In this document: positions 2,099-63,297 of the stretch, piece after piece
Layout: each line of letters starts with the position of its first letter
How positions within the stretch are numbered: the stretch's first letter is position 1
Virus record (IMG/VR): IMGVR_UViG_3300039310_000050
Coordinates: 1-64,000 of that record
DNA from: a virus
Strand: one strand, 5' to 3'
DNA length: 64,000 nucleotides
Notes under the pieces: model-generated
What the model was told of the DNA's origin: nothing
Seen by the model: the letters and a program-made list of their open reading frames with translations, nothing else
Databases searched by the model: none
Position numbers and translations under genes: made by a program

Positions 2099-2647
2099 TT
2101 ATTGTGATGGAGGAACCATCAATGCATCCAATTCATTTTCGATTATTGTTATATATTGAGGATCCACTAATTGTATATTTTTCTTTTCTTCATTCAAGGT
2201 AGTTTCATAATCATAAGAATAAACTTTTATACTACCTTGTGCAAATGTGGCATTATATGTGGCTAAATCAATCCAAGCACCTAAATTGTCTTCATAATGA
2301 TCTATCGTTGATTGAGCCACTTGGACCGATCCATATTTTTTATTTAAATATGCAATAAATTGGTCATAAGAAAGTGGCCAATCATTCCAAATATCAAAAA
2401 TATTATTTGCAAACATTACTACCCAATAATACATGGAAGATCCATATAATTTTTCAGCAATAATATCTGGTGTTTCTCCTTCTTTAATATGATAAGGATA
2501 AAAAACGATTATATTTTTTCGAACAATCTCAAGAAATTTGGCTCTATGAATAATATCTGTAATAAAACGGACATTTGTTCCAGTATTATCTATATCATAT
2601 ATGGTAGTTGGAAATTTTGAAAAATAGGATGTTGGCATTAAATACAT
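2099..2647 (-). CDS. gp53: baseplate wedge subunit gp53
   Basis: YFSKFP start; LysM-like YHIKEGETPDIIAEKLYG; YWVVMFAN; DWPLS. Confidence 0.9.
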   Translation of the reverse strand: MYLMPTSYFSKFPTTIYDIDNTGTNVRFITDIIHRAKFLEIVRKNIIVFYPYHIKEGETPDIIAEKLYGSSMYYWVVMFANNIFDIWNDWPLSYDQFIAYLNKKYGSVQVAQSTIDHYEDNLGAWIDLATYNATFAQGSIKVYSYDYETTLNEEKKNIQLVDPQYITIIENELDALMVPPSQ

Positions 2648-3363
2648 ACCTCTAATTTTCTTTTACCTAATTTTGTTTGGCGCATTTTTTCAATTGTTTC
2701 TTTTGGCCATTTTTTACCTTTATTCCAAGATGGTTTTCCTTTTTTGGCAAAAGACATCTTTTGCCGAGTTTCCGGAGACATATTTTGAAGGTGATGTATT
2801 CTTTTTTTACGAGTTTCAGGATTTTTCCAAGTCTTTTTAGATCCTTGACCAATTTTCTTTTTCGTTTCTTCTGTCATTTGTAAATGAGAATTTGACATTT
2901 TTTCAATAGATGCTTGAGAATGTTTTTTCCCTTTCATAGGATGTTTTTCTGGATGTTCTTTAAAATATTTCTTCTGGAATTCTGACATTTTCTTTTTAAT
3001 TTCAGGTCGAGACATAGCCAATTTAGTTGCTTGACTTATTTTCTTTTTTATTTTTTCAGACATAGTATATTTTTGCCTGCCAGATCCACCTAAATTCATA
3101 TTATAACCATTATAATAAGTGTTATACTTGGCAATCATTTCAATTTCTAATTTCTTGGCTTCTTCCAAAGTTAAGATATTATCTATAAGGATTTCGTGGT
3201 CCCAAAATTGATAGGGAATTTGTTTGATTGCTTGACTAAATTTCCATTCTTGTTTTAAAGACGATTTTATATGTGCTTTCCAACGATTTTCAATGGTTTG
3301 GCAAGTATAACCAATATAAGCCAAATCATTAATTATATTAGTGTGTTTGTAAATGATATACAT
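2638..3363 (-). mobile_element. free-standing GIY-YIG homing endonuclease with NUMOD3 repeats
   Basis: IIYKHTN...AYIGYT...RW..H, GYNMNLGG, and repeated HSQASIEKMS/EETKKKI motifs; late promoter at 3369-3376. Confidence 0.9.
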
Positions 3364-3408: not shown

Positions 3409-4389
3409 TTAGTAACCCTCATATATACGATTTTTGGTAATAACTTCAAGTTCTTGGAATGTTAATGAAAGATTTGTTTCAACTGCCATACCATTAATAT
3501 TAGTTCCTGGTCTAAATGCTGACCATGCACCCGATGCCATAGGATCAACTGTCATTGATGTAAGAGCACAGGTAGATATTTTATTTAAGAAATTATTTTG
3601 TTTTCCATTACTCCAAAATTCAATATCAAATTCAGAAGGATAAATTAAAAATTTAGCTGTATTTTTATCCGATCTAACCTCTGGAGCAGAATAAAATTTA
3701 AATGCACTAATAATATTTGCAACTGTAAGAGCTTCTTGTTCAGATCTAGGAGTAAATTTAAATTGGAATTGAAAAGTTCTAAATCCAATTCCTCGGAATA
3801 ACATTTCTAAATGAGGATTAATAGCAGTTTTAGTTATAAAAGTTCCAGCTTCTAAAAGTGGAGCATTTAATCCTATATGTTTAGATATTACATCTTCAAG
3901 ATCCTTTACAGCACCTACACCTATTTGAAGACCAAATTCTTCAATTGCTCTTTGTATGGAAGAATTTCCTCCTGCAAGAGCTTTACCTATAGCACCAAAT
4001 TGTCCAAATTCTTGTTGTCCCCAATCTGTTGCATATGTGGTTTGAAAAGAAGGTATATATAAAGCAATTAATGTCGAAACTCTATTAATATTATTTTTAT
4101 TATATGTAGTTGTATTACTATTTGAATTTACCTGTGGTGTTGCAGGATTTCCATTTGAATCTACAGGTGTACCACCATTTGTTGCATATTGTGAACCACT
4201 AACACCTAAAGTTGATTTTATAGTATTAATATAAAATAAAACCATATGTTGTTCTCCAGGATCGCTTGTTAAATCTATTGGATAAGTAAAACTGGATACA
4301 TTATATCCATTTGATTCTAATTTAGCTAAAGGATTAGATGTATTAGGTGGTAAAACTGACCCCGTTGAAGTTGGAATAGATGGCATCAT
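3409..4389 (-). CDS. gp48: baseplate tail-tube cap gp48
   Basis: INPHLEMLFRGIGFRTFQFQFKFTPRSEQEA and LSLTFQELEVITK. Confidence 0.88.
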   Translation of the reverse strand: MMPSIPTSTGSVLPPNTSNPLAKLESNGYNVSSFTYPIDLTSDPGEQHMVLFYINTIKSTLGVSGSQYATNGGTPVDSNGNPATPQVNSNSNTTTYNKNNINRVSTLIALYIPSFQTTYATDWGQQEFGQFGAIGKALAGGNSSIQRAIEEFGLQIGVGAVKDLEDVISKHIGLNAPLLEAGTFITKTAINPHLEMLFRGIGFRTFQFQFKFTPRSEQEALTVANIISAFKFYSAPEVRSDKNTAKFLIYPSEFDIEFWSNGKQNNFLNKISTCALTSMTVDPMASGAWSAFRPGTNINGMAVETNLSLTFQELEVITKNRIYEGY

Positions 4390-4402
4390 ATTGTCTAAAT
4401 AT

Positions 4403-4410
4403 TATTTATA
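4403..4410 (-). promoter_or_regulatory. T4-type late promoter for gp48
   Basis: TATAAATA between the divergent gp48 and gp4 genes. Confidence 0.7.
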
Positions 4411-4412
4411 CT

Positions 4413-4847
4413 ATGCCTTATAAAGGAAAATTCACACTTATACATCCTGAAAAATATAAAGGAAACCCACATAATATTATTTATCGTTCTATTTGGGAAC
4501 GAAATTGTATGAGAACTTTTGATTCTAGTTCAAATGTTTTAGCTTGGGCTTCAGAAGAATCATTTATTCCTTATGTATCTCCAGTTGATCAAAAAGTTCA
4601 TAAATATTTTCCTGATTTTCTTGTAAAAGTTTTGGATAAAAATAAACAAGAAAAGAAATATATGATTGAAGTTAAACCATATAAATTTACTCAACCACCT
4701 AAAATTCCTAAAAGAAAAACCAAATCATATTATAATGCGGTAGAAAGATATGCTATAAATTTATCTAAATGGGAAGCCGCCAAAAATTGGTGTATTGCTC
4801 ATGATTATATTTTTAAACTCATGACTGAAACGGAATGCATGAGATAA
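4413..4847 (+). CDS. gp4: head completion nuclease gp4
   Basis: YKGKF..IHPEKYKG, IIYRSIWE, WASEE, YFPDF, IEVKP, KWEAA. Confidence 0.92.
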   Translation: MPYKGKFTLIHPEKYKGNPHNIIYRSIWERNCMRTFDSSSNVLAWASEESFIPYVSPVDQKVHKYFPDFLVKVLDKNKQEKKYMIEVKPYKFTQPPKIPKRKTKSYYNAVERYAINLSKWEAAKNWCIAHDYIFKLMTETECMR

Positions 4848-4855
4848 ATATCTAT

Positions 4856-5593
4856 ATGGCATATATTTCTATTTTAGATCGTGTTCGTGAAAAACTTCAG
4901 AAAGAACCATTTTCAAATACTCAAGCTGGTTCTATAAAATGGTATAGAAATCAAATTAGAAAATTAAGTGAAAGTCCTACAGGACATTTTTATCGAGGAG
5001 ATACTTTACGTCCTCATTTATTAGCCGATCCTAATAGAAGTACGGAAAATATTTTACCTGGTTTAATGTATTTGTTTTATTATGATCCAAAATATAAAAA
5101 GGTTCTTCCATATTATGATAGATTTCCTTTAGTTTTCCCCATTGATTATAATCGAGAAGGTTTTATAGGATTAAATTTACATTATCTTGGATATAATACT
5201 CGATTAGAACTTTTCCGACAATTAGAATTAATGTCAAATAGAAATCAAAATGATCCACGGGCCCGTATTCAAATAGCATATAGAATGTTAAAAGGTTTTT
5301 CTAGATTTAAAGCTTTTAAACCTTGTTTGAAAAAATATTTATTTCAACATGTAAGATCACATTATGTAAGGATTAATTCACCTGATTGGGAAACTGCATT
5401 ATTTCTTCCAGTTGAACAATTTGTTAAACGGAGCAAAACATTTGTTTGGGCTGATTCAGAAAGAATTATTTCTGGAGAACAGAAAGGGCCGACAGGATTA
5501 CCTAAAACAACAAATATACCACATACTCCAACAGTGACAACCTCTCCGGTTCAAAAAACAGTTAATACAAATGGATTACCACATAAGATATAA
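4856..5593 (+). CDS. gp2: DNA end protector protein gp2
   Basis: YDPKYKKVLPYYDRFPLVF, GLNLHYL, KPCLKKYL, LPVEQF, VWADS. Confidence 0.92.
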   Translation: MAYISILDRVREKLQKEPFSNTQAGSIKWYRNQIRKLSESPTGHFYRGDTLRPHLLADPNRSTENILPGLMYLFYYDPKYKKVLPYYDRFPLVFPIDYNREGFIGLNLHYLGYNTRLELFRQLELMSNRNQNDPRARIQIAYRMLKGFSRFKAFKPCLKKYLFQHVRSHYVRINSPDWETALFLPVEQFVKRSKTFVWADSERIISGEQKGPTGLPKTTNIPHTPTVTTSPVQKTVNTNGLPHKI

Positions 5594-5602: not shown

Positions 5603-6403
5603 ATGCCAATCGCTTCCACAATTTCCCAGGTATCATCTTACGTAACTTCATTACTAAGATCTGGTAGTCCTACATCGGGTATTCAAGAAATAATTTCTCA
5701 AATAATGGATGCTGGTGGAGTTTCAAGAACAAATAGATTTTCAGTTCAAATTGTTCCACCAAGAATAGTTTCTAATGTGGCTTCAAATAGTTTATCACCA
5801 CAAGCACAACAAAATATACAAGGATATGCTCAATTACAAGGGCAAAGTCCGCAATCATTAGGAATTGTACAAGATTATTTTACAATAATGGGATTATCTG
5901 CTTCTAATTCTCCTGATAGATTAGATATAATGTGTTGCCGTGTTGAATTACCTGGAAAACAATTTTCTGCTACAGATGCTAAAACATATGGTGCTATTTT
6001 CCAAATGCCTAATGTAGATGTTTATTCTAATATTACATTATATTTTATTGTTGGAAGAGATATGTTTGAGCGAGATTTTTTTGATGCATGGTCTTATACA
6101 ATTCAAGATCCATCATCTTCTGATTTTAATTATGTGAATGAATATGCCACTACGGTTGATATTCTTCAAATGGATGAATATAATAATAGCAATTATGGGG
6201 TAAGATTATTTCAGGCATGGCCTATCAATATTGGAGAATTGAAATTAGAATATGCCGATATGAATTCTTACCATGTTTTACCTGTCACATTTACATATCG
6301 TAAATGGATAAATTTGAAAGTGAATACAGGAACACCAACTAGTATCCAACCAAGAGGGGCCCCTCCAACACCTTTTAGAAATACTATTTCGGTATCCAAA
6401 TAA
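5603..6403 (+). CDS. gp54: baseplate tail-tube initiator gp54 (gp19-like fold)
   Basis: GVSRTNRF, CCRVELPG, FFDAW, AWPINIG, VTFTYRKW; gp2-gp54-gp26 synteny. Confidence 0.8.
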   Translation: MPIASTISQVSSYVTSLLRSGSPTSGIQEIISQIMDAGGVSRTNRFSVQIVPPRIVSNVASNSLSPQAQQNIQGYAQLQGQSPQSLGIVQDYFTIMGLSASNSPDRLDIMCCRVELPGKQFSATDAKTYGAIFQMPNVDVYSNITLYFIVGRDMFERDFFDAWSYTIQDPSSSDFNYVNEYATTVDILQMDEYNNSNYGVRLFQAWPINIGELKLEYADMNSYHVLPVTFTYRKWINLKVNTGTPTSIQPRGAPPTPFRNTISVSK

Positions 6404-6409
6404 GGAAAT

Positions 6410-7222
6410 ATGAGTCTACCAAAAATTAAATTACCAATACATTCATTAATTCTTCCTTCAACAGGAGAAAAAGTTCTTTTTACTCCTTTTACTGTAAAGG
6501 AAGAAAAATTATTATTACTAGCGGCGGATGATGATGAAGAAGTTCAAATTAGAACTTTACGCCAAATTTTAAATAATTGTATTTTACCAAATGAAGCTGG
6601 TAAAAAAATAAATGTTGAAAAATTACCATTATTTGACCTTGATTATCTTTGGTTAAAAATTCGTCGGTGGTCAGTTGAAGAAATTGTAACTGTACCTTTT
6701 GAATGCCGGCAACCTTTACCAGAAGGGCAAATATTAACCGATTCTGAAGGAAATAAAAGAAATTATTGTGGACAAATAGTAAATGTCCCTATTAATTTAG
6801 ATAAAGTAGAAGTTACAAAAGATCCTACAAATGATCCAAAAATTTCTTTATTAGAAGGAATTACAGTTGTATTATGTTATCCTACAATCGAAACTCTTCA
6901 ACATTTATTAAAAGTAAAAAATGAAAATGATATTGAAGGAAATTTATCTGTTGTGGCTGAATGTATTACTTTAATTTATGATTCTACAGATAATAAAACT
7001 TATGAAAAACAACATTTAGAAAAAACCGAAGTGATTGAATTTTTAGAATCTCTTCCACAATTAGAATTTGTTAAAATTATGAAATTTTTTGAAACTTTAC
7101 CTAAAATTAAAGTAGAAGTTAAATTCCATTGTCCTAGATGTAAACATGAAGCTAATATTGTTATTGAAGGGACTAAAAGTTTTTTAGCCTCGGCCTCAGC
7201 CACGAAACCCTTCCAAACTTAA
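6410..7222 (+). CDS. gp26: baseplate hub assembly protein gp26
   Basis: MSLPKI, LPSTG, PFTVKEEKLLL, LPLFDLDYLWLKIR, FFETLPKI, CPRC, GTKSFL. Confidence 0.9.
   Translation: MSLPKIKLPIHSLILPSTGEKVLFTPFTVKEEKLLLLAADDDEEVQIRTLRQILNNCILPNEAGKKINVEKLPLFDLDYLWLKIRRWSVEEIVTVPFECRQPLPEGQILTDSEGNKRNYCGQIVNVPINLDKVEVTKDPTNDPKISLLEGITVVLCYPTIETLQHLLKVKNENDIEGNLSVVAECITLIYDSTDNKTYEKQHLEKTEVIEFLESLPQLEFVKIMKFFETLPKIKVEVKFHCPRCKHEANIVIEGTKSFLASASATKPFQT
7180..7186 (+). promoter_or_regulatory. candidate -1 ribosomal frameshift slippery heptamer T TTT TTA
   Basis: XXXYYYZ heptamer in correct gp26 phase; the -1 frame is open into gp51. Confidence 0.65.
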
Positions 7223-7242
7223 TATTATGGAATCACGAATTA

Positions 7243-7377
7243 ATGATGCATCAAAAATATTCGTTGACTGAGTTAGAAAATATGATTCCTTGGGAACGTA
7301 AAATATATACAGAATTAGTAATTAAATGGATTAAAGAAGAAAACGAAAGATTGGAGAAAAAATATGGTCCCAGATAA
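7243..7377 (+). CDS. gp51: baseplate hub assembly protein gp51 (short; frame open from 7180)
   Basis: MMHQKYSLTELENMIPWERKIY...IKEEN; not in the ORF track because it is under 60 aa. Confidence 0.85.
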   Translation: MMHQKYSLTELENMIPWERKIYTELVIKWIKEENERLEKKYGPR

Positions 7378-7585
7378 TGAAACTTTAATACCATCTAAAG
7401 ACAATGTTAATTGGATTTATAAGTTTTTTGAAGCATTGAGTTTAAGTGGTGCAATTATTGTAATGTTATTCTCATTAACTGTTTATGGTATTGCTTCTCA
7501 CCAAAAAGAAGTATATCAAAGTTTTGGTACTGCTTTTTGTACCTTTGTAACTGGAAAACAATTAGGAAAAATAGAAGGAAAATAA
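7364..7585 (+). CDS. small membrane protein
   Basis: Hydrophobic stretch LSGAIIVMLFSLTVYGIA. Confidence 0.55.
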   Translation: MVPDNETLIPSKDNVNWIYKFFEALSLSGAIIVMLFSLTVYGIASHQKEVYQSFGTAFCTFVTGKQLGKIEGK

Positions 7586-7600: not shown

Positions 7601-10393
7601 ATGGCATTATCACAAGATCCTACATTAAATACAAGACAAATAGATGCCAGTATATCTGCCATAACTGCCAGAATCCAAAAATCTTTAGGTAACCTTGAAA
7701 AAACTTTGGGTCATTTTGAAGTATCAATGTTAGATCTTCAAAATAATATGAAACTTTCCCAAATATCTGGAAAAGTACCTGGTCAACCAGGAAGAAATGA
7801 ACTAGGTAGTTTTTTTGATAAAAGATTTGAACAAATTGCCAATAGTATTAAAGAATCTTCAATTTTTGAATTAAAAACCAATAAAAAAAGATTAGAAAAC
7901 CTTGAAGGAATGGCCAAAGAAACATTAGGACTTTCTAAACAAGGTCAAAGTGTTTATGAACAATATGGCCTTATGGCCAATAAATTAAATGAAGAAATTA
8001 AATCTCGGTCTAAATTAGGGCATAAAATTGGCGATTTTTTAAAACGTAATGAAATTGATGCTATTAGTATTACCGCAGCATTAACTTCAAGAAATCCTAT
8101 TATTGGTCTTGGTATTAAATATATCCTTGAAAAAAGAAAAGAATCAAAAGAAGCGGCTAAAAAACAAGAACACCAACCACTTATAGATTCATTAGCATAT
8201 CGTGATTTATTAAATCGTCAAAAACAAAGAAATATAAAACCAAAGAAATTTGGTCAAAAACTATCAACTAAAGAAACTAAAAATCGAAAAACAAAAGAAA
8301 CACCACAAACATCTGAAGAATTTGTAAATGAAGAAGTTCCAGAAATATTAACTCCTGAAATATTACCACCTCTTCCAAGATTATTAAAAGCACCATATCA
8401 AGAAGAAGAATCTCCTATTATTGATGCTGAATATATGGATTTAGGTCCTCGACAATTAGAACGTGGAGCTTATCAAATGCCACCTTCTGAACCTAAAAGA
8501 CTAGAAGCACCAAATATGCAGAATTATAGAAATCGTGAAGGAGGAAGATTTGTATCTGGATATGGTATAACTCCTTCGGTTAAAGATTTACAAGGGCAAC
8601 CAATGATCCTTGATAAGATTGAAAAACCTTTAGAGGATATTAAAGTTTCTGCAATTGGTATTAGTAAAGAAATAGCTCTTTATCATCGAGAAAATAAAGA
8701 ACAAACCGATGAACAACTTGATGCTGAAGAAAAGAAAAAAGAAGATGAAGAAAAAAGACAAAAAGAATTAATTGATTCCATTGAATCACTTAAAGGTAAA
8801 AAATCTGATAAGACACAAGCAGCAGGTGGACATGGTATATTTGGTGGGTTATTAGGTGGTTTATTTGGTGGTTTATTATCTAAATTTGGTGGAATAGGAT
8901 CTTTATTAGCTAGTGCTGGACCTATTGCAATGGTTGGTGGTTCTATTTTACTTTTAGCGGTTGATTCTATATTAGGATATTTTAAATCAAGTGAATGGGG
9001 AGTTTCTAAAGTAGCTGGTACTTTAGGTGGAATGTTAGGTGGTTCTATCAAAAATAAAATGTTAAATACCTTTACTCAAATGGGTAAATGGGCTTTAATT
9101 GGAGCTACTATAGGTTCTTTTGTTCCTGTAATAGGAACATTAGCTGGTGGGCTTTTAGGAGCAGCAATTGGTGGAATATTAGGATGGATTGGTGGAGAAA
9201 ATATAGCTAAATTTTTCCAAAGTTCTGGAGAAAAAATAGGCAAATTATTTAAATCAATTACAGCATCATTAGAAATTGCTTTTTATAATTTTGCCGCTTC
9301 TTTATTAGATTGGGTTCCAGGTGCTTGGGCTTCTCATAAAGCAAGTGAATTTAGAAAAAAGGCTAGAGAAAAGGAAAAAGAATCTGAAATTCCCGCAGAA
9401 CCTTTACCACCAGAAAAAATTGAAACTGGTATTGATACAGGAAATATTCATATTGCTGTTCCTGGAGAAAATACTAATCTTGGAGAAAATGCAGGAACTG
9501 AAACAAATAAAAAAGAAACAAATAATATTTCTGTAACAACTGGACCAAAACAACCCCTTGAACTACAACAGTCTCCAATTAATCAACAATTGGTTCCATC
9601 TGAAGGAATCCCAACAATGATATCTCTTGGCATACCTGGAGTTAATGAAAATGTGGTTGATATCCAAGATATGCACCTAGATGATAATGGATATAAAAAA
9701 ATTAAAGGAAGTGAAGCTAGTAATAAATTCCATCCAACACCTTATTGGGATGTAGATGGGTATTCAATTGGTTTTGGCCATAAAATTTTACCTAATGAAC
9801 ATTTTACAAAAATCACCAAATCTGATGCAGAAAATTTATTAGTGCATGATGCCCAAAAAGCAGAAAACTTAGTTAAAAAATATGTGCATACTCCTGTTAC
9901 TCAAAAAATGTTCGATTCTTTGGTTGATTTTGCATATAATGTGCCTTCTGGTATTCCTAATATTGCCGAAAATATGAATGTAGGTGATTTTAGAGGGGCT
10001 GCTAAAAGGATGAAATTATATACAAAAGCCAAAGACCCTCAAGGAAAATTTGTAAATAAGAAAACAGGTGAAAGATATTCTGAATTACCTGGATTAGTTG
10101 CAAGACGTAAGGAAGATGCAGATTTATTAACATCTGATTTAATACCAGATTCAAATAATATTAGACAATTAACACCGCCACCACCTCAATCTGGTGTAGC
10201 TATAATGGCTATGACTAAACAAAATGAAGATCTGAAAGCTACGCAATCTACTTCTGGAACAAATTCTACAGTTATAATTCCTTCTAATACAAATTTAAAT
10301 ACAACTGCGGTTTTATCTCAACAACAAGATCCAAATAATTTAGATAATACTTATAGAGATACAAGAAGATTAAATGCTTTTGGTGGTGGATAA
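7601..10393 (+). CDS. tape measure-like protein (gp29 position) with C-terminal GH24 lysozyme domain
   Basis: Coiled-coil plus Gly-rich hydrophobic segments; IKGSE...YWDVDGYSIGFGH...QKMFDSLVDFAYN...GLVARRKED. Confidence 0.75.
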   Translation: MALSQDPTLNTRQIDASISAITARIQKSLGNLEKTLGHFEVSMLDLQNNMKLSQISGKVPGQPGRNELGSFFDKRFEQIANSIKESSIFELKTNKKRLENLEGMAKETLGLSKQGQSVYEQYGLMANKLNEEIKSRSKLGHKIGDFLKRNEIDAISITAALTSRNPIIGLGIKYILEKRKESKEAAKKQEHQPLIDSLAYRDLLNRQKQRNIKPKKFGQKLSTKETKNRKTKETPQTSEEFVNEEVPEILTPEILPPLPRLLKAPYQEEESPIIDAEYMDLGPRQLERGAYQMPPSEPKRLEAPNMQNYRNREGGRFVSGYGITPSVKDLQGQPMILDKIEKPLEDIKVSAIGISKEIALYHRENKEQTDEQLDAEEKKKEDEEKRQKELIDSIESLKGKKSDKTQAAGGHGIFGGLLGGLFGGLLSKFGGIGSLLASAGPIAMVGGSILLLAVDSILGYFKSSEWGVSKVAGTLGGMLGGSIKNKMLNTFTQMGKWALIGATIGSFVPVIGTLAGGLLGAAIGGILGWIGGENIAKFFQSSGEKIGKLFKSITASLEIAFYNFAASLLDWVPGAWASHKASEFRKKAREKEKESEIPAEPLPPEKIETGIDTGNIHIAVPGENTNLGENAGTETNKKETNNISVTTGPKQPLELQQSPINQQLVPSEGIPTMISLGIPGVNENVVDIQDMHLDDNGYKKIKGSEASNKFHPTPYWDVDGYSIGFGHKILPNEHFTKITKSDAENLLVHDAQKAENLVKKYVHTPVTQKMFDSLVDFAYNVPSGIPNIAENMNVGDFRGAAKRMKLYTKAKDPQGKFVNKKTGERYSELPGLVARRKEDADLLTSDLIPDSNNIRQLTPPPPQSGVAIMAMTKQNEDLKATQSTSGTNSTVIIPSNTNLNTTAVLSQQQDPNNLDNTYRDTRRLNAFGGG

Positions 10394-14683: not shown

Positions 14684-14760
14684 TGGTCGGAAATGGTGGA
14701 TTCGAACCACCGACCCTCGGTTCCCAAAACCGATGCTCTACCAGACTGAGCCAATTTCCG
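14684..14760 (-). tRNA. tRNA-Pro(TGG)
   Basis: Cloverleaf; anticodon arm TCGGT-TTTGGGA-ACCGA; encoded CCA. Confidence 0.95.
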
Positions 14761-54188: not shown

Positions 54189-54264
54189 TGGCAGGGGTGG
54201 GGAGACTCGAACTCCCGTCTTACAGTTTTGGAGACTGCCATCCTTCCCATTAAACGACACCCCT
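54189..54264 (-). tRNA. tRNA-Trp(CCA)
   Basis: GCAGT-CTCCAAA-ACTGT; CCA end. Confidence 0.93.
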
Positions 54265-54563
54265 ATTAGTGGCGTTATACAATTATTTATCGCTTTCTAA
54301 TTCTAATAAAATATCATTAGGGATATTATCTTTAGACAAAATCATAAATGGTGCCACAAAAAGAGTTACTGTTTTTACTTTCCAAGTTTTTGCTCTTCCA
54401 ATTCTATAATCCCATTTATCTTCTATACGAGCCCGAATAGAAATATTACCATTTTCTGTAATGTTGACAACTCTTCCAACTCTTAAATGTGTTCCTTTAT
54501 ATTTACTAGAAGTGGGAGCAGCGATATAATCTCCAATTTTAATTTCACGTTCAAAAATATCTT

Positions 54564-55436
54564 TCATACTTTTATAATTTTTCCTTTTGAGAAAATAGCA
54601 GCTAAATCCGATAAATTACCAGCATTCTTAACCAAAATACTGGCCATAGAAAACATAACCATCATTGTTATTACCTTTAGTGCCTTTTCATATCCGGATT
54701 GTGGATTAACACAATCGGATATAATATGCATATCAATCGGTGCATGAGGTGGTACTCTATAAAATTCATCCATAATTATTATTTGCGGAAATTGTTTCTG
54801 CATTTTTTCAGCAATTATCTGTTCTTCTGGTTGAAACCAAATTTTATATGTTGGATGTTCTATTAATAAATTCTCTAAAATACCAAAATAATCTTCAATT
54901 GAAACCAATTTCAAACCAGGATTAATTCGTAAATCATTAAATTTATTTGTTCCTCTGTGAGAAACCGCTATTGTTTCTTCTGGAATTAAATTATACCTTT
55001 TAAAAAGTATATTTGCATACTGTTGTACACTTGGACTCCATTTTACAAGTCGTGGTACAATTTCCCTTAATAATTCCATTTCAGATACATTATAAACATC
55101 AATACGACCTAATGTTAAAAGATCATTCAACTTTCGCATATATTCACCCATACCAATAGGGTATGGATATACTTGCGGCCAAATATCATGTGGATTATCT
55201 AAGACTTCATCTAATTCTACTAACGGTTGTTCAAAAAACCAATCCCAAACATTTGGTCCTAATAATATAGGAGCATTTGAATCTTTATATAAACCAATTG
55301 TAGATCCTCGGCGCCAATCAACGGCCGCTTTAATTCCACACAATTCAGCATTTCGGAGCATCAATACATAATTCAATATATGAAATGCTAATGGTGATTC
55401 ATCATCGCTATCACATTGGATTAATGCATAACTCAT
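54564..55436 (-). CDS. NodZ-like (GT23-type) glycosyltransferase
   Basis: NVWDWFFEQP and IAVSHRGTNK (cf. H.RGTDK). Confidence 0.55.
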   Translation of the reverse strand: MSYALIQCDSDDESPLAFHILNYVLMLRNAELCGIKAAVDWRRGSTIGLYKDSNAPILLGPNVWDWFFEQPLVELDEVLDNPHDIWPQVYPYPIGMGEYMRKLNDLLTLGRIDVYNVSEMELLREIVPRLVKWSPSVQQYANILFKRYNLIPEETIAVSHRGTNKFNDLRINPGLKLVSIEDYFGILENLLIEHPTYKIWFQPEEQIIAEKMQKQFPQIIIMDEFYRVPPHAPIDMHIISDCVNPQSGYEKALKVITMMVMFSMASILVKNAGNLSDLAAIFSKGKIIKV

Positions 55437-55863
55437 GGTTTAAATTCCGTATCTTTAATAGAACAATTTGAGATTCTTTCTACTGGAAGAAGTCTTTCAA
55501 TAAAATCACAAGCTTCCTCATAAGTATCAGTAGAAACCAATTTCTTTTTAGATTCATAAATAATAAAACGTTTAGTTTTATTCATTTTTAAGATTTTCCA
55601 AATAAGATCTTTGTTCTAAAAGTTCTTTTCTTTCATCTGCCAAAACCACTAATATAGAACAATCTATACCATATTTTTTCAAATTATCAAGTATATCTTT
55701 CCAATTACTACAGCTTATTGATTCTAATTTATCAGAAATATCTTTCAACATATAAGCAATATCATTAAATTTTCTTGTATTATCTTCTATTTTTCTTGCT
55801 ACTTCTTTTTCTTTTTTAAAATATTCTTTTACTTCCATAAAATTTCCCCTCCCTTCAAAAATT

Positions 55864-55940
55864 TGGTAGCCCGAGAGGGATTCGAACCCACAAAAAATAG
55901 CTCCTAAGGCTACCGCGTCTGCCAATTTCGCCACCGGGCC
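55864..55940 (-). tRNA. tRNA-Leu(TAG), short variable loop
   Basis: GTAGC-CTTAGGA-GCTAT; CCA end. Confidence 0.8.
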
Positions 55941-56814
55941 AATTTTACTTTTCTATAATACTTCCAAAACTGGTTTAGAAATTATTTTAACTTCTTTTAC
56001 CAATTTATAAATACCAAAAATCACTTCTCCATCACCACTATTATTGCGTAATTGTTCATTTAGAAATTCAGTATCTTGTAAATCTTTTTCATTTGAAGAT
56101 ACTATATTTTCATCAATATCACTATATATTAACGTATTTTCCGTTTTATTTCCCTTTCTTTGGTGTAGTAACCAAAACTGCTGAAGGATTAGCAGATAAT
56201 TTATAAGTTCTAACCAATTCATAAACTCCAACTAAAATTTCTTGTCCTTCATTAAAATTACTAAGGACATCTTCAACATACTCCTTTTGTTTTACATCAG
56301 ATTCCTTAGTATCCAGATCAAAAGAATCCTTTCCTTCAACAACAACAATCGTTTTTAGTAAATTATGTGACATTTTTTTTCTCTCTTTTCTATAAATATA
56401 AACTTGGTAATTTAACTGCTTCTTCTACTAATCCAACCCAATAATCATCCAAATTATCAATATTAAAATCTTTTTCACCAAAACCATTATCCCTCAAAAA
56501 ATTTCTAATATACATCCCATAACCAAAATGATATTCTGTCCACCATTCTTGTGGGTCATTATCAATCGCTTGACGAATTTTATCTATTGATTCCCGTTTT
56601 AAATGAACTTTTAAAAATTGAACACATTCATTACGTAAATCCGGTCTTAATAAAGCCACTTTATCCGCATGATATTTTTGCCAATTTTCTGGTAAATTCA
56701 AATCGACTTCACCAGTTATTTTCTCCTCGGTTTGTTTCCATATTCTAAACATATATTACCTTTTAAATGATTGGTTCCACATGTGGATGTAATTCTTCAA
56801 AATAACATAATCTA

Positions 56815-56843
56815 AATATATCACAAATAATTCTGGTTGTCAA
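56815..56843 (-). promoter_or_regulatory. sigma70-type early promoter
   Basis: TTGACA-17-TATATT with TG. Confidence 0.7.
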
Positions 56844-56853
56844 GTAAGAAATT

Positions 56854-56928
56854 TGGCTCTGGCCCTTGGATTCGAACCAAGATCCTAAATGTTAACAGCA
56901 TTTCGCTTTACCATTAAGCTAGACCAGA
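56854..56928 (-). tRNA. tRNA-Asn(GTT)
   Basis: AAATG-CTGTTAA-CATTT; CCA end. Confidence 0.93.
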
Positions 56929-57183
56929 AGATCCTTTAGCTACCCGGGAATGTAATTACTTTCAGAATCTAAAACCAATTCATATTTGAGCAAGTAAAAT
57001 TTATAATTTTCAATATAACATTGGTGGTCTTTTTAAATATAAATAATAGCTTGTGTAACATAATCAGGACGTTTGTATAATTTAGCTTTACTTATTTTTT
57101 ATCCACGTATCACGACCACAATAAAATGGCTTAATCCATCCATCATTACGCCGCAAAATATACACATTCATAATATTATCCTT

Positions 57184-57258
57184 TGGAGCGAGGTGCGAGG
57201 ATCGAACTCGCATAAACTAGCTTGGAAGGCTAGCGCACAACCATTATACCAACCTCGC
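57184..57258 (-). tRNA. tRNA-Gly(TCC)
   Basis: CTAGC-CTTCCAA-GCTAG; CCA end. Confidence 0.93.
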
Positions 57259-57563
57259 CACGCTCATCCGAGGCGCCCATTCGCGATTCGCGAATCGCGA
57301 ATCCCGAATCTATAATGGTCTCATGGTCTTGAAGCCACAGGATTCCTCGCTTATCGAATACGCAATTGATATTGTAACTTTTCTGCCAAAATCATAATAT
57401 CTTCGGCATTTTCGGTACAAACAAATCTTAACCCACTATCCTTACGTATTTCTACATTTTTTAGTATTTCATATATTTCTCCTATTGTTAGATAATCTCT
57501 CAATAGAAAAAATAAAAATAATTTAATTCGTTCTTGATCCATACTATTCCTCAATTCAAAATT

Positions 57564-57637
57564 TGGCACCCGGTCAGGGACTCGAACCCCAATTAATGGC
57601 TCCAAAGGCCACTGTCCTACCATTAGACGAACCAGGT
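57564..57637 (-). tRNA. tRNA-Gln(TTG)
   Basis: GTGGC-CTTTGGA-GCCAT; CCA end. Confidence 0.92.
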
Positions 57638-58517
57638 ATTAACCCATAGAACTTGGTGAAGTACCCATAGTATTTACATTAGCATTATAAGGTTCTTCTA
57701 TTTTTGACCGACGAAATTCCTTATTTTTTTCTTCTCGTTCTGTTTTATCTCTATCTTCAGTTATTGGTGTATCTTTCAAAAAATTTTCAAGAGACATATC
57801 ATCCATACGGCCTACTTGGATAACTACACCATCAAGGACAAAATGCCATTCATTTGCTGGAAGATCAAGTAATATTTCTTGCCCTTCATCAAATCGGTAA
57901 GACCAATGTTCATCAGCCCCTTTAACAGGACCTACATAACCATGCATATTTAATAAAATGGTTTGCGTTGCTTGTTTAAAAATTTCTTTATAAGATTTCA
58001 TATTTAATATTTATCAAAATTTCAAAAAACTTTCATGGATTAATATACCTTTTGGTGGTCTTGTTTCACACCTTCCATACCGAGAACTACAATTATATGG
58101 TATATATTTCTCAGTATTAAAAATTGCTTTCTTTCCATTTAAAGGACCACCAATACAAGGAAATTTAGTAGATCCACTTACTCTTTTATAAGAATAACTA
58201 TATTCCCATTTTGATTTGGTTTTTAATTTATAAAATACATCACTAATAAAAACATCTTCCGATCGATTTTCAGTTTCATTATGTATTGTTAACACATCCT
58301 GATCCCATTTTATATCATATTTTTCATAAGAATCATAATCTTTTAAGAAAGCGGGTTGTTTGAATGTTCGTTTTATAACATCAGGGAATTTCGTTTTTCC
58401 TATCCACATACTACTACTCCATGTTTAAATAATACACTCGGTTCTATCGTTCCATCATTATACATTGCAACCTTTTCTTCACTCATAATTTCCACCAATA
58501 ATATACATGAAATAACA

Positions 58518-59702
58518 TTACATATCCTTCTTATCCCGAAATCCAAGTGCCCTTGGAAACCTTGGAATACCATCTGCTGTTAAATTTTGAAATGCTACTT
58601 TCACCAACTTACCAATATATTTCTTTCCATCTCGGTAATATTCTTCACGTTTTGCCGCCGATGCTTTAGGTGTAGCTTTAAATCTCTTATGATCTTTTGT
58701 TTCACAAATCCAAATGGCTGAATTAGCCATTTTACCAACACCATGTTCGAAATCAACTACCTTATATTCTGCATCTTGGAAAGATTTTACTTTTTGAATA
58801 TCGCTTGATCGGTGGCCAAATAAATATTCACCATCCCAATTACGGACAATACATCCTTCATATCCTTGTTCCACAAATGTTTTTTCAAAATCAAAAATTT
58901 CATCATATTCATATGTAGGTTGTAAACATGCACTACAAACTCCTGCATAATATTTTGGTAATTTAACTACTTGATTTACAATATAAGTTGGTACTAAAAC
59001 CAAATATGCACTTTCATATTTTGGACTAGTAGGGTTTAATTTATGAAAAAATGCTTCAAGATTTTTCAAGCGATTCTTCCAAATATCACGTTTCCCCAAT
59101 TCATTAATTGGCATATCAAATACATGATATTCTAATTGTTCTGTTTCACCTTCATGATATTTCTTTGCCCATGAAGTAAGAGATTCAAAATCAACTCCAT
59201 GAACATATAATTCACCATCCAGAACCATTTCTTGTGGCATTACTTTTTCAAGTTCTTCAATAATATGTTTAGGAGCCGTCCATTCTTTACCACCGCGAGT
59301 CCCTAATACTACACGGCCATCTTCCCAATATGCCATTGCACGAACACCATCCAATTTTGGTTGGAGGTCACATGGATAAACGATTCCGCGGCCTTTCTTT
59401 TTATGAAAATCGTGTGCCAACATAGGTAAAAAGATTTCTTCTTTAGCACCTTCTTTAGTTTCAGAATATTTTCGTTCCCGTTTAAAAGTCCACATTGCTT
59501 GAGCTTCCAAAATTGCTTGTTCTTCCGCAGTTGTGGCATTTGCTTTACCAAAATTTTTTGGAGTAGCTTTTTTGGGTGAAAGTTGTAATTTACCACCAAT
59601 TTGTCCATGGCGGGTAATAATAGTATCACCTTCTGTCCAAATATCCCATTGAACTAAAGCTCCCGTTTTACTTTTATGATATAATGTTGGAAATGTTTTC
59701 AT
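58518..59702 (-). CDS. ATP-dependent DNA ligase
   Basis: PMLAH, QPKLDGVRA, LDGELY, VFD, GYEGCIVR, KVK, GIPRFP. Confidence 0.93.
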   Translation of the reverse strand: MKTFPTLYHKSKTGALVQWDIWTEGDTIITRHGQIGGKLQLSPKKATPKNFGKANATTAEEQAILEAQAMWTFKRERKYSETKEGAKEEIFLPMLAHDFHKKKGRGIVYPCDLQPKLDGVRAMAYWEDGRVVLGTRGGKEWTAPKHIIEELEKVMPQEMVLDGELYVHGVDFESLTSWAKKYHEGETEQLEYHVFDMPINELGKRDIWKNRLKNLEAFFHKLNPTSPKYESAYLVLVPTYIVNQVVKLPKYYAGVCSACLQPTYEYDEIFDFEKTFVEQGYEGCIVRNWDGEYLFGHRSSDIQKVKSFQDAEYKVVDFEHGVGKMANSAIWICETKDHKRFKATPKASAAKREEYYRDGKKYIGKLVKVAFQNLTADGIPRFPRALGFRDKKDM

Positions 59703-59906
59703 TTTAAAATCCTTGTGAACGGTCATATGCAGCTTCCGCTTGAGCGGCCTTTTTTTCCGACCAATTAACCTCAGCATCAAGGAAAACATTATACTGTTCA
59801 TTTTCAGGCAAATCGTAAAAATCTACACCAAAACGTTCTTCAGCAAGACGTTCTGCTTCCATTTGAATTTCATATTTATAGTCTGACATATTCAACCTCA
59901 ATTACA

Positions 59907-59935
59907 ATTATAGCGTATGTAAGGCCGCTTGTCAA
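59907..59935 (-). promoter_or_regulatory. sigma70-type early promoter
   Basis: TTGACA-17-TATAAT. Confidence 0.8.
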
Positions 59936-59947
59936 GTGATTTTTAAA

Positions 59948-60051
59948 GACGCCTAGTGGATTCTTTGCTCACGCGAAAGAACCCTGTAAGGAGGCGAGAT
60001 GATCTTGCTCAAGGACCATCTTCTTGTGGTATGCTAGGCGTACCCATACCA
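59948..60051 (-). ncRNA. candidate pseudoknotted small RNA 3' of tRNA-Thr
   Basis: Two crossing 7-8 bp helices plus two hairpins sharing a TGAGCAA motif. Confidence 0.55.
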
Positions 60052-60054
60052 AAC

Positions 60055-60131
60055 TGGAGCCGCGGGGGAGAATCGAACTCCCTCTCTGTTGATTACAGGT
60101 CAACCGCTTTCCCGGATTAAGCTACCGTGGC
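60055..60131 (-). tRNA. tRNA-Thr(TGT), C33 variant
   Basis: GTTGA-CCTGTAA-TCAAC; GCC/GGC acceptor; CCA end. Confidence 0.85.
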
Positions 60132-60203
60132 TAATAACTTTTTCCTTTTATTTTAAAAATAAATCTCCTTCCCTTACCTTTTGTATTTAAAGATCCGAAA
60201 TTA

Positions 60204-60279
60204 TGGCGGGACCGAACGGATTCGAACCGTCAACATCTTGCTCGACAGGCAAGAACTCTAACCATTGAGCTACGGTCCC
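60204..60279 (-). tRNA. tRNA-Asp(GTC)
   Basis: CTTGC-CTGTCGA-GCAAG; G73; CCA end. Confidence 0.94.
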
Positions 60280-60503
60280 TAAACTTTCTTTTTCGGATAA
60301 TCATTCACATAAAATCCAGGGCCCACAAATTTCAATGCGGAAGTAGAAACTTTCCGTTCCAAGTGGCCGCGGCATCTACTTTCTGTCAATTCATAATTTT
60401 CTGCTAAATCACCGTGGGTCAAAACTCTGGCTTCTTCATCCATCTTTTGGAAGATTTCAAAAGTCTTTCCGCATTCACTACACACGTAATCGTAATATGG
60501 CAT
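60279..60503 (-). CDS. FmdB-family zinc-ribbon protein
   Basis: MPYYDYVCSECGKTFE...FVGPGFYVNDY. Confidence 0.8.
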   Translation of the reverse strand: MPYYDYVCSECGKTFEIFQKMDEEARVLTHGDLAENYELTESRCRGHLERKVSTSALKFVGPGFYVNDYPKKKV

Positions 60504-60510
60504 AAAAATC

Positions 60511-61293
60511 CTAATGGTCTTTTTCACCCTGTGTAGCCGCAGGTAATGGAGCATCTGGATCCGATTGATACCATTTATATTTTCCATCTTTTAATAATTT
60601 TCGAAATTTAATTAAACGCGATACTGGCATAGCAATCATACTTGTTTGTGCTACAGTACCAACTATAAAAGCACAAATAGCATGTTGATTCAAACAAATA
60701 ACCGATGAACCACTTGATCCACCATTTATACCAAATTCTTGTAATAATATAGTTCCAGTCCATTGAATGGCATCATCAACAATAGGACGATCAACACTTG
60801 TACTAGAAACAGACCCTAAAAACACTTGTTTACCAATTCCTAATGGACCACCAACATTAATTACTTCATCTAATAAATTAGGATCTTCACCTAATGGAAT
60901 AATAGGAAAACTAAAAGTTTTATCAACTGTTAATAAGAAAAAATCATCACCTTTAGTCCTATATCCGCAACCTTTAGGAATTGCTTTTAAATAAACTTTA
61001 TCCCCAGGAATATCTGGAGATATAAAGAAAAATGTTTTTTCTGGTGTAACTGTCTTTTTTTCCGAATCATCTATACAACCACAATGAGCGGCTGTAACAA
61101 ATGTATATGTAGTTTTATCTTCATCAATAGCTGTAGCGGTGCATTTCATTTCCATTGTACCTTGTGCTGTTTGAGCATATAATAATGTTGTAGCTGGCCA
61201 TAATACTTTATTCACATATAATTTATCGGCATTCGATAACTGTCCGAATATTAATGTTGAAAACATCAACGAAAGAACTATTAATTTCGTCAT
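60511..61293 (-). CDS. secreted trypsin-like serine protease
   Basis: Signal peptide; TAAHC; DF; GGSSGS. Confidence 0.8.
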   Translation of the reverse strand: MTKLIVLSLMFSTLIFGQLSNADKLYVNKVLWPATTLLYAQTAQGTMEMKCTATAIDEDKTTYTFVTAAHCGCIDDSEKKTVTPEKTFFFISPDIPGDKVYLKAIPKGCGYRTKGDDFFLLTVDKTFSFPIIPLGEDPNLLDEVINVGGPLGIGKQVFLGSVSSTSVDRPIVDDAIQWTGTILLQEFGINGGSSGSSVICLNQHAICAFIVGTVAQTSMIAMPVSRLIKFRKLLKDGKYKWYQSDPDAPLPAATQGEKDH

Positions 61294-61655
61294 CCAATTT
61301 CCTTAATTTAAATTTTAATCTCCTTTTCTTGGATCTTCTTTACTAGCATTTTTAATTTCTATTTCTGTTAATTTTACAGTTAATTCATTTTCATCCATTG
61401 CTTCAAAAAGAGCCATTTCAATAGCAATACCACCCTCTTCTTTTATAGTGGCTGCCCGTTTATTAATTCCGTGTGATACTAATAAATGATCTTTTTCCTT
61501 ATCAGATAATTGATTCATTTGTTTTACAAATTTAAGTGTATTTAATAATGTATGTTGCATACTTATAACCATTCTCTTCCATAATCTTGTTCTTGATCAT
61601 ATCTTATTAATCTTTCAACAAAATCTTTTATTTTCATGATATTTCCTTTAATCTT

Positions 61656-61731
61656 TGGAGGGACGTCAGAGAGTTGAACTCTATCTAATGGTTCCACAGA
61701 CCATCGTGCTTACCGGCAACACTTCCGTCCC
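61656..61731 (-). tRNA. tRNA-His(GTG)
   Basis: ATGGT-CTGTGGA-ACCAT; CCA end. Confidence 0.85.
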
Positions 61732-61823
61732 TGGTGTAAGGTAATGGATTTGAACCACTGAGGCCTCCGAAGAGACAAAGGAGCTACAGCCCTTCGCATT
61801 CAACCGAACTCTGCCAACCTTAC
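61732..61823 (-). tRNA. tRNA-Tyr(GTA)
   Basis: AAGGG-CTGTAGC-TCCTT; long variable arm; CCA end. Confidence 0.9.
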
Positions 61824-61827
61824 AAAA

Positions 61828-62208
61828 TTATTCTGCTTTATCTACTTTATTTAAACTTTCCACTTCTGTTCTTGGACGGCAAGCCTCACAAGTTAAAGAA
61901 TTTAATTCTTTAAGTAATTCCGAATTACGATCATAAAGAAAATTAATATCCTCAATCAAATTGTCTACTGCTAAATCAGTTTCCTTAACTCTATCCATTA
62001 AATCCTTTTCAACTTCTTCTAAGGATTCAACTTGTTCAAATAACTCATCATTTTCTTCTTCTAAGTTTTCAACCATTTCATTAGCTTCGTCCAAAGAATA
62101 TTCTAAGTCACGATAGGCTTCATCTAAATCAAAATTTTCTCTTAACAACTCTTTATTATTTTCTTTTAATTCTTTTACTAATTCTTTTAATTGTTTAACC
62201 GTTTTCAT
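61828..62208 (-). CDS. acidic coiled-coil protein
   Basis: Heptad-rich Glu/Leu sequence. Confidence 0.65.
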   Translation of the reverse strand: MKTVKQLKELVKELKENNKELLRENFDLDEAYRDLEYSLDEANEMVENLEEENDELFEQVESLEEVEKDLMDRVKETDLAVDNLIEDINFLYDRNSELLKELNSLTCEACRPRTEVESLNKVDKAE

Positions 62209-62228
62209 AATTATCCTCATTTCTAATT

Positions 62229-62306
62229 TGGACCACCAGGAGGGACTTGAACCCTCTAAGACCAGTTTTGCAGACCTAGCGCCTCGACCACCTCGGCATC
62301 TAGTGA
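62229..62306 (-). tRNA. tRNA-Cys(GCA), imperfect stems
   Basis: CTGCAAA loop; U73; CCA end; bulged anticodon stem. Confidence 0.75.
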
Positions 62307-62309
62307 ATT

Positions 62310-62384
62310 TGGTGGACCCGCCGAGACTCGAACTCGGAACTCAACCTTGCAAAGGTCATATTTTCCCATTAAAACTACAAGCCC
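62310..62384 (-). tRNA. tRNA-Ala(TGC)
   Basis: TGACC-TTTGCAA-GGTTG; G3.U70; CCA end. Confidence 0.93.
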
Positions 62385-62493
62385 AATTTTCTTTCTTCAT
62401 ACCACTGTTTTCTGTGGCAATTAGCACAAAGAACATCACTCTAAACCATCGTTTTCTATCTTCTGGATTTTTAAATGCCATTTCTTTTAAAAT

Positions 62494-62569
62494 TGGTAGT
62501 GGATTAGGGAATCGAACCCTACTAAACTTGCTTGTAGAGCAAGTGCCTCAACCAGCCGGCCCATCCACT
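62494..62569 (-). tRNA. tRNA-Val(TAC), C33 variant
   Basis: CTTGC-TCTACAA-GCAAG; A73; CCA end. Confidence 0.8.
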
Positions 62570-62928
62570 AAACTACATCCGGATCAACTGGCGCCACTAC
62601 CACGCGGGCCGCGCTATCCAAATAACCATATGCTGTAGCCGTCCATTCACGGCTTGGAACAACCCGCAAAGTATGAGTACCCTTTTCAGTACCTTCTCTA
62701 ATTGTTGCCTTATGTTGTTTGGGGATTCTATCCCAACACTTTGAGCAAAACAAATTCTTACCAGATGCCATATTCTTACACTTCGGATAATCAAAACATC
62801 TATGAACACTACCAACCTTTTTCTTGGTTTTAGTAGCACGCCGGATAGCATCCTGGCATTCACTACATTTTTGATCGTTTCTTCCGATACTTGAGCAACC
62901 TGAACACATAAATTTTCAACCTCAATTC

Positions 62929-62957
62929 ATTGTAACACAATTTATTTAGAATGTCAA
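62929..62957 (-). promoter_or_regulatory. sigma70-type early promoter
   Basis: TTGACA-17-TACAAT with TG. Confidence 0.75.
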
Positions 62958-62980
62958 GGGGAATTTTAATTCCCCTATAT

Positions 62981-63163
62981 TTAAATCAACAAAATCAATT
63001 TGGGTAATAACCACGCGAATAACCAAATTAATAACCCAATAACCAAAATAAAATTAATAACTACTCGAATTCTTTGGTCCATCGTCAAAGTACCCAATAA
63101 ATACCACGCAAGACCAACAAAGGCAAGAACTATACAAGACACAAAAATTAAATGAAGAAGCAT
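62981..63163 (-). CDS. small two-TM membrane protein
   Basis: Two hydrophobic helices; AAGGAG SD; late promoter at 63212-63219. Confidence 0.7.
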   Translation of the reverse strand: MLLHLIFVSCIVLAFVGLAWYLLGTLTMDQRIRVVINFILVIGLLIWLFAWLLPKLILLI

Positions 63164-63222
63164 AAGATATCTTACTCCTTTCTGGAGATACAGACACTTA
63201 TCTCATGTTAGTATTTATATTT

Positions 63223-63297
63223 TGGTAGCGGGTGGGGGTATCGATCCCCACTCTATGGCTTATGAGACCATCGTGACACCTGTTCACTTCACCCGCA
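63223..63297 (-). tRNA. tRNA-Met(CAT), initiator-like 1:72 mismatch
   Basis: ATGGT-CTCATAA-GCCAT; U1:U72; CCA end. Confidence 0.8.

Follow-up and report, generated by a model that had tools for sequence, protein, structure and literature searches.

A probable conserved -1 frameshift joining gp26 to a gp51-type extension in a T4-like phage of peat and wetland

In long-tailed phages the tail assembly chaperone -1 frameshift has been described as conserved 'except T4' (Atkins et al. 2016, PMC5009743), and the lambda proteins gpG and gpGT together with the conserved tail-chaperone frameshift are the subject of Levin 1993 and of Xu, Hendrix & Duda 2004, both covered in the review PMC5009743. For phage T4, Leiman et al. 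2010 (PMC3004832) count gp26 and gp51 among the hub assembly chaperones and describe gp51 as essential, of unknown function and not part of the particle. The present analysis concerns the gp26 gene in a stretch of 64,000 nucleotides of viral DNA (positions 1 to 64,000 of IMG/VR record IMGVR_UViG_3300039310_000050), hereafter called the window, whose source is an uncultured, AT-rich, T4-like phage occurring in peat, wetland and soil metagenomes. An original prediction, made from the letters alone, had proposed that gp26 is fused to gp51 by a probable -1 frameshift in the manner of lambda G/GT. The locus resembles lambda gpG/gpGT in that a short and a C-terminally extended product are predicted from one gene by -1 slippage near its 3' end, and in the absence of the T4 counterpart gp51 from virions; its flanking genes, of tube type on one side and with weak tape-measure matches on the other, may also correspond to those of lambda. 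The heptamers differ, being G_GGA_AAG in lambda and U_UUU_UUA/C here. With T4 the locus shares the gp26/gp51 family (PF12322, phrog_150) and the type of extension (phrog_634), whereas T4 has two separate genes for the short and long forms, the window has one gene with a slippery site, and identity to the T4 proteins is low.

Comparison of the window with related phages pointed to a very probable conserved programmed -1 frameshift, by which one gene would give both a short form of gp26 type and a long form of gp51 type; the probability of this reading was put at about 0.85. The features of the locus, including the open reading frames (ORFs), are given below.

6410-7222, + strand: gp26 homologue, baseplate-hub assembly chaperone, with a predicted 0-frame short product of 270 residues (PF12322 T4_baseplate, E=5.9e-51; phrog_150, E=4.8e-54)
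7174-7176, + strand: TAA at which the -1 frame closes, lying one codon before the heptamer
7180-7186, + strand: slippery heptamer T_TTT_TTA in X_XXY_YYZ phase with gp26
7186-7377, + strand: -1 frame extension of 63 codons plus stop, from translation (phrog_634, E=5.3e-20; phrog_150 positions 231-280, E=3.5e-5)
7187-7222, + strand: 0-frame tail ASASATKPFQT plus TAA, non-conserved and modelled as disordered
7243-7377, + strand: 44-codon ORF matching phrog_634 'baseplate hub assembly catalyst' (E=6.4e-15) at profile positions 76-115 of 121

The reading frames around the heptamer were analysed. The gp26 start at 6410 sets the codons AGT TTT TTA at 7178-7186, so that T_TTT_TTA at 7180-7186 stands in the X_XXY_YYZ phase; coordinates and phase are those given in the original prediction. 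The -1 frame was closed by the TAA at 7174-7176 and then remained open for 65 codons (7180-7374) up to the stop at 7375-7377, while the 0 frame past the heptamer gave only the 11 residues ASASATKPFQT before the TAA at 7220-7222, again as had been predicted. A fusion through this site would join gp26 residues 1-259 to the extension and give a long product of 322 amino acids with the junction ..EGTKSFL|SLGLSHE.. in it. The sequence U_UUU_UUA is the gag-pol slippery site of human immunodeficiency virus 1 (HIV-1) and an established -1 shift site. The ATG at 7243, which is in the -1 frame, is not preceded by AGGA or GGAG at a distance of 5-10 nucleotides, unlike the starts at 6410, 7364 and 7601, which is in accordance with the predicted lack of a strong Shine-Dalgarno sequence. 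No start codon was found in the -1 frame between the TAA at 7174-7176 and this ATG, that is, none before codon 22.

In-phase XXXYYYZ heptamers numbered about 3.1 per related AT-rich gp26 ORF and four in the window gp26, and a lone heptamer of this kind is not significant in such ORFs. The length of the -1 frame that opens after each of the four was 65 codons at 7180 and 2, 2 and 6 codons at the others. The heptamers at 6568, 6916 and 6940 were rejected as shift sites because their -1 frames close within 2-6 codons, and a second run of six T at 7085-7090 (encoding K-F-F-E) was rejected for its non-slippery phase. Contigs of four other metagenome studies span 6937-7500, although one ends at 7352; they show no indel, and 7130-7350 is unchanged in them; because these independent contigs carry no indel at the site, assembly error was excluded as the source of the frame arrangement. 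In one peat run (X14 record 2), a 151-nucleotide contig of a related phage matched 7130-7193 across the heptamer with 6 differences and then diverged, which implies a second lineage with the same junction in that run.

The conservation of the site was analysed in two samples of related junctions from IMG/VR. The first contained 80 loci found with the -1 peptide, which together with four GenBank phages and the window made 85 junctions. The second contained 79 evaluable loci found by the gp26 protein alone and was therefore unbiased toward the extension. The heptamers of the first sample were TTTTTTC (49), TTTTTTT (20) and TTTTTTA (16), all in phase with gp26 ORFs that were 232-259 codons long. 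The -1 frame was closed 0-19 codons upstream, and the 0-frame stop followed 3 codons on in 68/85. The second sample showed an in-phase TTTTTTN within the last 20 codons in 79/79 loci (C in 69, T in 5, A in 4 and G in 1). TTTTTTN thus occupied the same codon and phase in 164/164 related junctions of both samples, and among the four in-phase heptamers of the window only the one at 7180 was conserved. The conservation extended to synonymous sites. Both Phe codons were TTT throughout, and the codon before the run was AGT, GAT, AAT or TCT, the residue varying between S, D and N while the third base was T in 82/82. Since position and sequence were kept in all related junctions, the comparison indicates that the conservation of the heptamer is not due to chance.

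The window, L091 and L093 use TTTTTTA, the rarer heptamer, with 0-frame tails of 13, 13 and 10 codons. The 0-frame tail of L091, the closest relative, reads ASDSAMNLLEI against ASASATKPFQT in the window, with the -1 frame conserved. The closest relatives of the window in general (gp26 52-58% identical) kept the -1 peptide, with differing 0-frame tails.

The coding signal of the -1 frame was calculated in 83 distinct junctions for codons 5-21, a stretch of 17 codons that lies after the usual 0-frame stop and before the annotated 'gp51' Met. The entropy was 0.90, 0.69 and 1.46 bits at codon positions 1, 2 and 3, a pattern resembling that of the annotated ORF (0.51, 0.23 and 1.19). Residue retention in the -1 frame was high, with H8 in 78/83, L11 in 82/83, N18 in 83/83 and F19 in 82/83 junctions, while the 'gp51' Met was retained in 75/83 and replaced in 8/83. 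A canonical start upstream of the FF was present in 1/84 loci, and 70/84 loci had none before codon 9, leaving these 70 with no start codon able to yield the conserved first eight residues. Independent initiation therefore fails to account for the N-terminal third of the extension, which is conserved. The comparison supported the view that the 44-codon ORF named 'gp51, baseplate hub assembly catalyst' by gene callers and in GenBank is the C-terminal two thirds of this extension. The junction alignment that the original prediction had proposed thus found both the heptamer and the -1 frame before the Met conserved in all relatives examined, thereby supporting the probable -1 frameshift.

The two predicted products were compared with T4 gp26 and gp51. 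Residues 11-259 of the window gp26 matched PF12322 at profile positions 4-218 of 219, and the match to phrog_150 covered positions 5-235 of 282. T4 gp26 (208 residues) and T4 gp51 (249 residues) are both full-length PF12322 members (E=8.8e-64 and E=3.9e-52, respectively), and on phrog_150 they cover positions 14-235 and 13-280. These matches indicate that T4 gp26 and gp51 are paralogues and that gp51 is a gp26-type body with a C-terminal extension. The -1 peptide of the window matched phrog_634 (E=5.3e-20) and phrog_150 at positions 231-280 (E=3.5e-5), and BLASTP aligned T4 gp51 residues 216-244 to its residues 18-47 (E=2e-4). Only through the -1 frame is the gp51-type extension colinear with the body in the window. 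T4 gp26 ends in ..GLKEFFELL, and this FF is equivalent to the one at which the window would shift frame; in the T4 DNA the FF is encoded in GAG TTC TTT, which breaks the run, and genes 26 and 51 stand apart and are transcribed divergently. Being colinear with full-length gp51, the predicted 322-residue product would be the equivalent of T4 gp51, and the predicted 270-residue product would correspond to T4 gp26. This colinearity bears out the proposal that the tiny annotated gp51 is really an extension.

The distribution of the extension was analysed by peptide search, which returned 479 phage records, 467 of them with at least 80% coverage of the peptide. The carriers included cyanophages, pelagiphages, phiM12-like phages, and phages of Methylophilales, Caulobacter and Pseudomonas. 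Junctions read directly were AAT TTT TTT in phiM12, GAT TTT TTC in Acidovorax phage ACP17 and AGT TTT TTC in Aeromonas phage AS-sw (Straboviridae). The extension, though open and homologous, is unannotated in GenBank for ACP17 (L087, 2250-2420), AS-sw (L088, 2590-2770), S-CAM1 (L001) and S-WAM1 (L002). Among 467 representative proteins matching the extension, the best 150 were all short mis-called ORFs of 43-208 residues. An uninterrupted long gp51 was present in 1375 phage records, mostly phages of enterobacteria, Acinetobacter and Aeromonas. Two metagenomic gene calls, P0012 (99 residues) and P0139 (192 residues), run in frame from the C-terminal part of gp26 through ..FF|R.. and on into the extension, which may reflect natural in-frame fusions or else errors in homopolymer length. 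In the Klebsiella phage 0507-KN2-1 (Ackermannviridae; L089, about 2630-2800) the gp26 homologue ends GAG ATT TTC ATT TAA, and a gp51-like extension (..YSIFEISELMPWHLDML..) lies unannotated in the -1 frame; this site is non-canonical with respect to XXXYYYZ. No report of a gp26/gp51 frameshift was found in the full-text literature, with subscription-only papers including Xu et al. 2004 outside reach.

The mechanism proposed for the window is as follows. Most ribosomes would terminate at 7220-7222 and produce the 270-residue protein. A minority, their P site occupied by tRNA-Phe and their A site by tRNA-Leu, would slip back by one base on U_UUU_UUA at 7180-7186 and would read 63 more codons of the -1 frame up to 7377 to give the 322-residue protein with the junction ..KSFL|SLGLSHE.. 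in it, while a slip in the P site only would give ..KSFF|SLG.. instead. We infer this slippage from the site, its conservation, the coding selection in the -1 frame and the colinearity with T4 gp51. The short form would resemble T4 gp26, and the long form would resemble T4 gp51 as a body followed by a C-terminal extension that is helical and about 50-60 residues long. If the analogy with lambda G/GT holds, the shared body may bind the hub or tape-measure assembly via an N-terminal chaperone-fold domain, and the extension may recruit a second partner. The rate of slippage would, on the same analogy, fix the ratio of short to long form, and neither form would be expected to stay in the virion.

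The fold of gp26 was modelled with AlphaFold2 from a 66-sequence alignment, giving a predicted local distance difference test score (pLDDT) of 88.5 and a predicted template modelling score of 0.81. The model showed three domains with zinc-ribbon cysteines, and in the disordered 0-frame tail residues 262-267 fell below pLDDT 50. The extension modelled alone formed three helices at moderate confidence (pLDDT 70.5). The gp26 model was aligned exhaustively to 48,161 PDB representatives. The top matches, all to model residues 1-99, were 3FGX (Z 7.7), 2OB9 (Z 7.4) and 3KLU (Z 6.2), which form a single family and stand 2-3.5 units above the next unrelated match to that domain (Z 4.1), although values of 6.2-7.7 are near the aligner's usual ceiling for unrelated best matches. 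In these three, 83-88 residues were aligned on chains of 96-119 residues, at 7-10% identity. The three entries, 3FGX (Rbstp2171 of G. stearothermophilus), 2OB9 (HK97 gp13) and 3KLU (YqbN of B. subtilis), are solved tail assembly chaperones (PMC9603447). They are single-domain proteins, whereas gp26 adds about 170 residues. The model therefore gives moderate support to a tail-assembly-chaperone fold in the N-terminal domain of gp26. A Foldseek search of the gp26 model against the PDB returned nothing at E<=1e-3, with the HK97 chaperone at rank 7, and a sequence search of gp26 against the PDB gave no match. NCBIfam had no match for gp26 or for the extension. The whole gp26 fold is widespread in large myoviruses (BFVD). 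From the fold, the gene order and the analogy with lambda, the chance that gp26 and the fusion act as a G/GT-type chaperone pair was judged a little better than even. The G/GT analogy of the original prediction was thus strengthened in its structural part by the chaperone fold, and not in sequence membership, where no Phage_TAC family of Pfam was matched.

The gene order was analysed in the same region, and the neighbours of the pair are given below.

3409-4389, - strand: gp48-like tail-tube-cap gene
4380-4847, + strand: gp4-like head-closure gene
4835-5593, + strand: gp2-like DNA end protector
5603-6403, + strand: tube-fold protein of gp54/gp19 type, upstream neighbour of gp26 (phrog_3629 'tail tube protein', E=2.5e-40; phrog_45, E=8.3e-35)
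7364-7585, + strand: ORF of 73 residues with a hydrophobic core, its start overlapping the end of the extension by 14 nucleotides (GGAG 7 nucleotides upstream of the ATG)
7601-10393, + strand: tape-measure-like protein of 930 residues (PF00959, E=1.1e-17; weak matches to phrog_794, E=2.8e-5, and phrog_991, E=2.5e-4)

The homologue of the 5603-6403 product carries the annotation 'baseplate tail tube initiator' in the Pelagibacter phage Mosig; in phiM12 it is called 'tail tube monomer gp19.2'. By its sequence matches the product is a tube-fold protein, and it is no more than a candidate for the major tube protein. The 73-residue ORF separates the gp26/extension pair from the tape-measure-like gene, and it had no family match in Pfam, PHROGs or NCBIfam. 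At the equivalent position, Mosig and phiM12 carry small unannotated or hypothetical ORFs. The 930-residue protein starts with a charged part, continues with a hydrophobic, Gly-rich middle that gave the weak tape-measure matches, and has a phage-lysozyme domain at its C-terminus; its similarity to T4 gp29 was not significant (E=0.5). It may combine the tape-measure and tail-lysozyme roles, which are separate in T4. The pair may thus lie, as predicted, between tail-tube and tape-measure genes, with a tube-fold gene upstream and, beyond the 73-residue ORF, a gene with weak tape-measure matches downstream.

Besides the level of the Z scores, several observations weigh against the frameshift and its assignment to a chaperone pair. 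Folding of 50-141 nucleotides at and beyond the heptamer in the window gave no significant RNA structure (minimum free energy -6.2 kcal/mol, z -0.4 to -0.9). The gag-pol heptamer of HIV-1, identical to that of the window, works on eukaryotic ribosomes with a downstream stem-loop, whereas the window is without significant structure. A slip that rests on the heptamer alone may be inefficient, and on U_UUU_UUA it needs re-pairing of tRNA-Leu(UAA) on UUU. A purine-rich GAR-GGN motif was present upstream, at -15 to -9, in 62/82 loci; it encodes a conserved Glu-Gly with the third base of Gly free, and its role as a Shine-Dalgarno-like stimulator was unsupported because the conserved Glu-Gly explains it. 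None of the sequencing runs listed as holding the stretch is recorded as RNA. In Pfam, gp26 matched PF12322 only and no Phage_TAC family, and the support for a tape-measure identity of 7601-10393 is limited to weak PHROG matches (E about 1e-5).

Across 80 junctions the median z of the downstream fold was -1.05. An 8-bp hairpin lying 5 nucleotides after the heptamer is real in a subclade and forms in 10/145 junctions, the window having 3/8 of the pairs; it was rejected as a family feature, being absent from the window and most relatives. In this subclade (L005, L008, L011, L013, L017, L037 and others) the hairpin is located at nucleotides +6 to +25 and is of the type GGGCUCUC-ACAU-GAGAGCCU, and some changes in it look both compensatory and synonymous (Leu CUC/CUU/CUA paired with GAG/GAA/GAU). 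In the window the heptamer alone appears to carry the shift signal. For lambda G/GT, too, a strong downstream structure is not known to be needed.

A first alternative accepts the frameshift and confines gp26 and the gp26-51 fusion to the baseplate hub, where they would act on gp27/gp5-type proteins, the likeness to lambda G/GT being a convergent logic of expression. T4 genetics assigns gp26 and gp51 to hub assembly (PMC3004832), and this documented role is unlike that of lambda gpG/gpGT. Compared with the lambda type, the window gp26 is about twice the size, has extra domains (three in all) with zinc-ribbon cysteines and is without Phage_TAC membership, and the 930-residue protein is weakly tape-measure-like. 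Against these points stand the identity of the three best structural matches of the N-terminal domain, which are the three solved tail assembly chaperones, and the order of a tube-fold gene, the pair and a tape-measure-like gene, the gene downstream in phiM12 being annotated as similar to tape measures. The T4 tape measure gp29, whose gene lies three genes beyond gene 51, is part of the hub too, and because of this hub assembly and tape-measure handling overlap. Confinement to the hub was considered rather unlikely.

A second alternative, which was considered very unlikely, replaces the ribosomal slip by slippage of RNA polymerase, in which an extra U in the T6 run would give an mRNA with the extension in frame and hence the same 322-residue protein. 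The site is a homopolymer of 6 T, with 7-8 T in about 25/164 relatives, and the conservation of phase could be mere inheritance, as FF is encoded in both frames. P0012 and P0139 read ..FF|RISMAH.. in frame, as a variant with one additional T would. In bacteria, transcriptional slippage as a rule requires about 8-9 or more identical bases in a row, whereas the run here is exactly 6 in most loci and not lengthened. The run is always in X_XXY_YYZ phase and its Z base is G in only 1/164, which fits the rules of tRNA re-pairing and not slippage of the polymerase. The DNA contigs of four runs were without length variation, though contigs hide rare variants.

It is very improbable that there is no fusion and that the small ORF is translated alone, from the ATG at 7243 or from a non-canonical start closer to the gp26 stop, as a 'gp51' of 44-65 residues with the T run only encoding a conserved Phe-Phe: this would match the annotation of the genome records, a canonical start exists at -1 codons 2-8 in 13/84 loci, P-SSM2 has an ATG right after the gp26 stop and an independent small product alongside the fusion is possible, but the window has no start before the ATG at 7243 and yet the 21 codons preceding it are under coding selection, the Met is lost in 8/83 relatives and in the window lacks the Shine-Dalgarno sequence of its neighbours, the never-TTC Phe codons and the invariable T before them go beyond amino-acid constraint alone, and in T4 gp51 the corresponding region forms the C-terminal end of a protein of 249 residues and not a free peptide.

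The probable programmed -1 frameshift also bears on the history of the T4 genes. That gp26 and gp51 across the T4-like radiation are divergent homologues of the lambda/HK97 chaperones, with an ancestral -1 frameshift that a late duplication into two genes replaced in T4, was regarded as an evenly balanced possibility. If it is true, cyanophages, pelagiphages, phages of the phiM12 and ACP17 types, some Aeromonas phages and the phage of the window retained the frameshift, T4 is no longer an exception, and the 'catalytic' gp51 would be a GT-type adaptor. The frameshift itself would lift the one stated exception, 'except T4' (PMC5009743), and would show the same pair to be encodable by slippage or by duplicated genes. 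If it is real, the product in hundreds of public T4-like genomes showing a 40-60-codon 'gp51' or a blank stretch would be a fusion of about 300-320 residues. To view gp51 as the longer member of a chaperone pair, with a body that begins in a tail-assembly-chaperone fold, offers a testable model for an essential hub-assembly protein (PMC3004832). With the window, the arrangement reaches a lineage of peat and wetland that has the rarer UUUUUUA and no detectable stimulatory structure.

The remaining observations concern other parts of the window. ARAGORN identified 13 tRNA genes in it, all on the - strand, of which 12 are clustered at 54-63 kb (54189-63296) and one lies at 14684-14760; tRNA-Phe and tRNA-Leu(UAA) were absent among these 13. 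An ORF at 2638-3363 on the - strand, adjoining the gp48-like gene, resembles homing endonucleases of the GIY-YIG type and carries the motifs IYKHTN..YIGYT.

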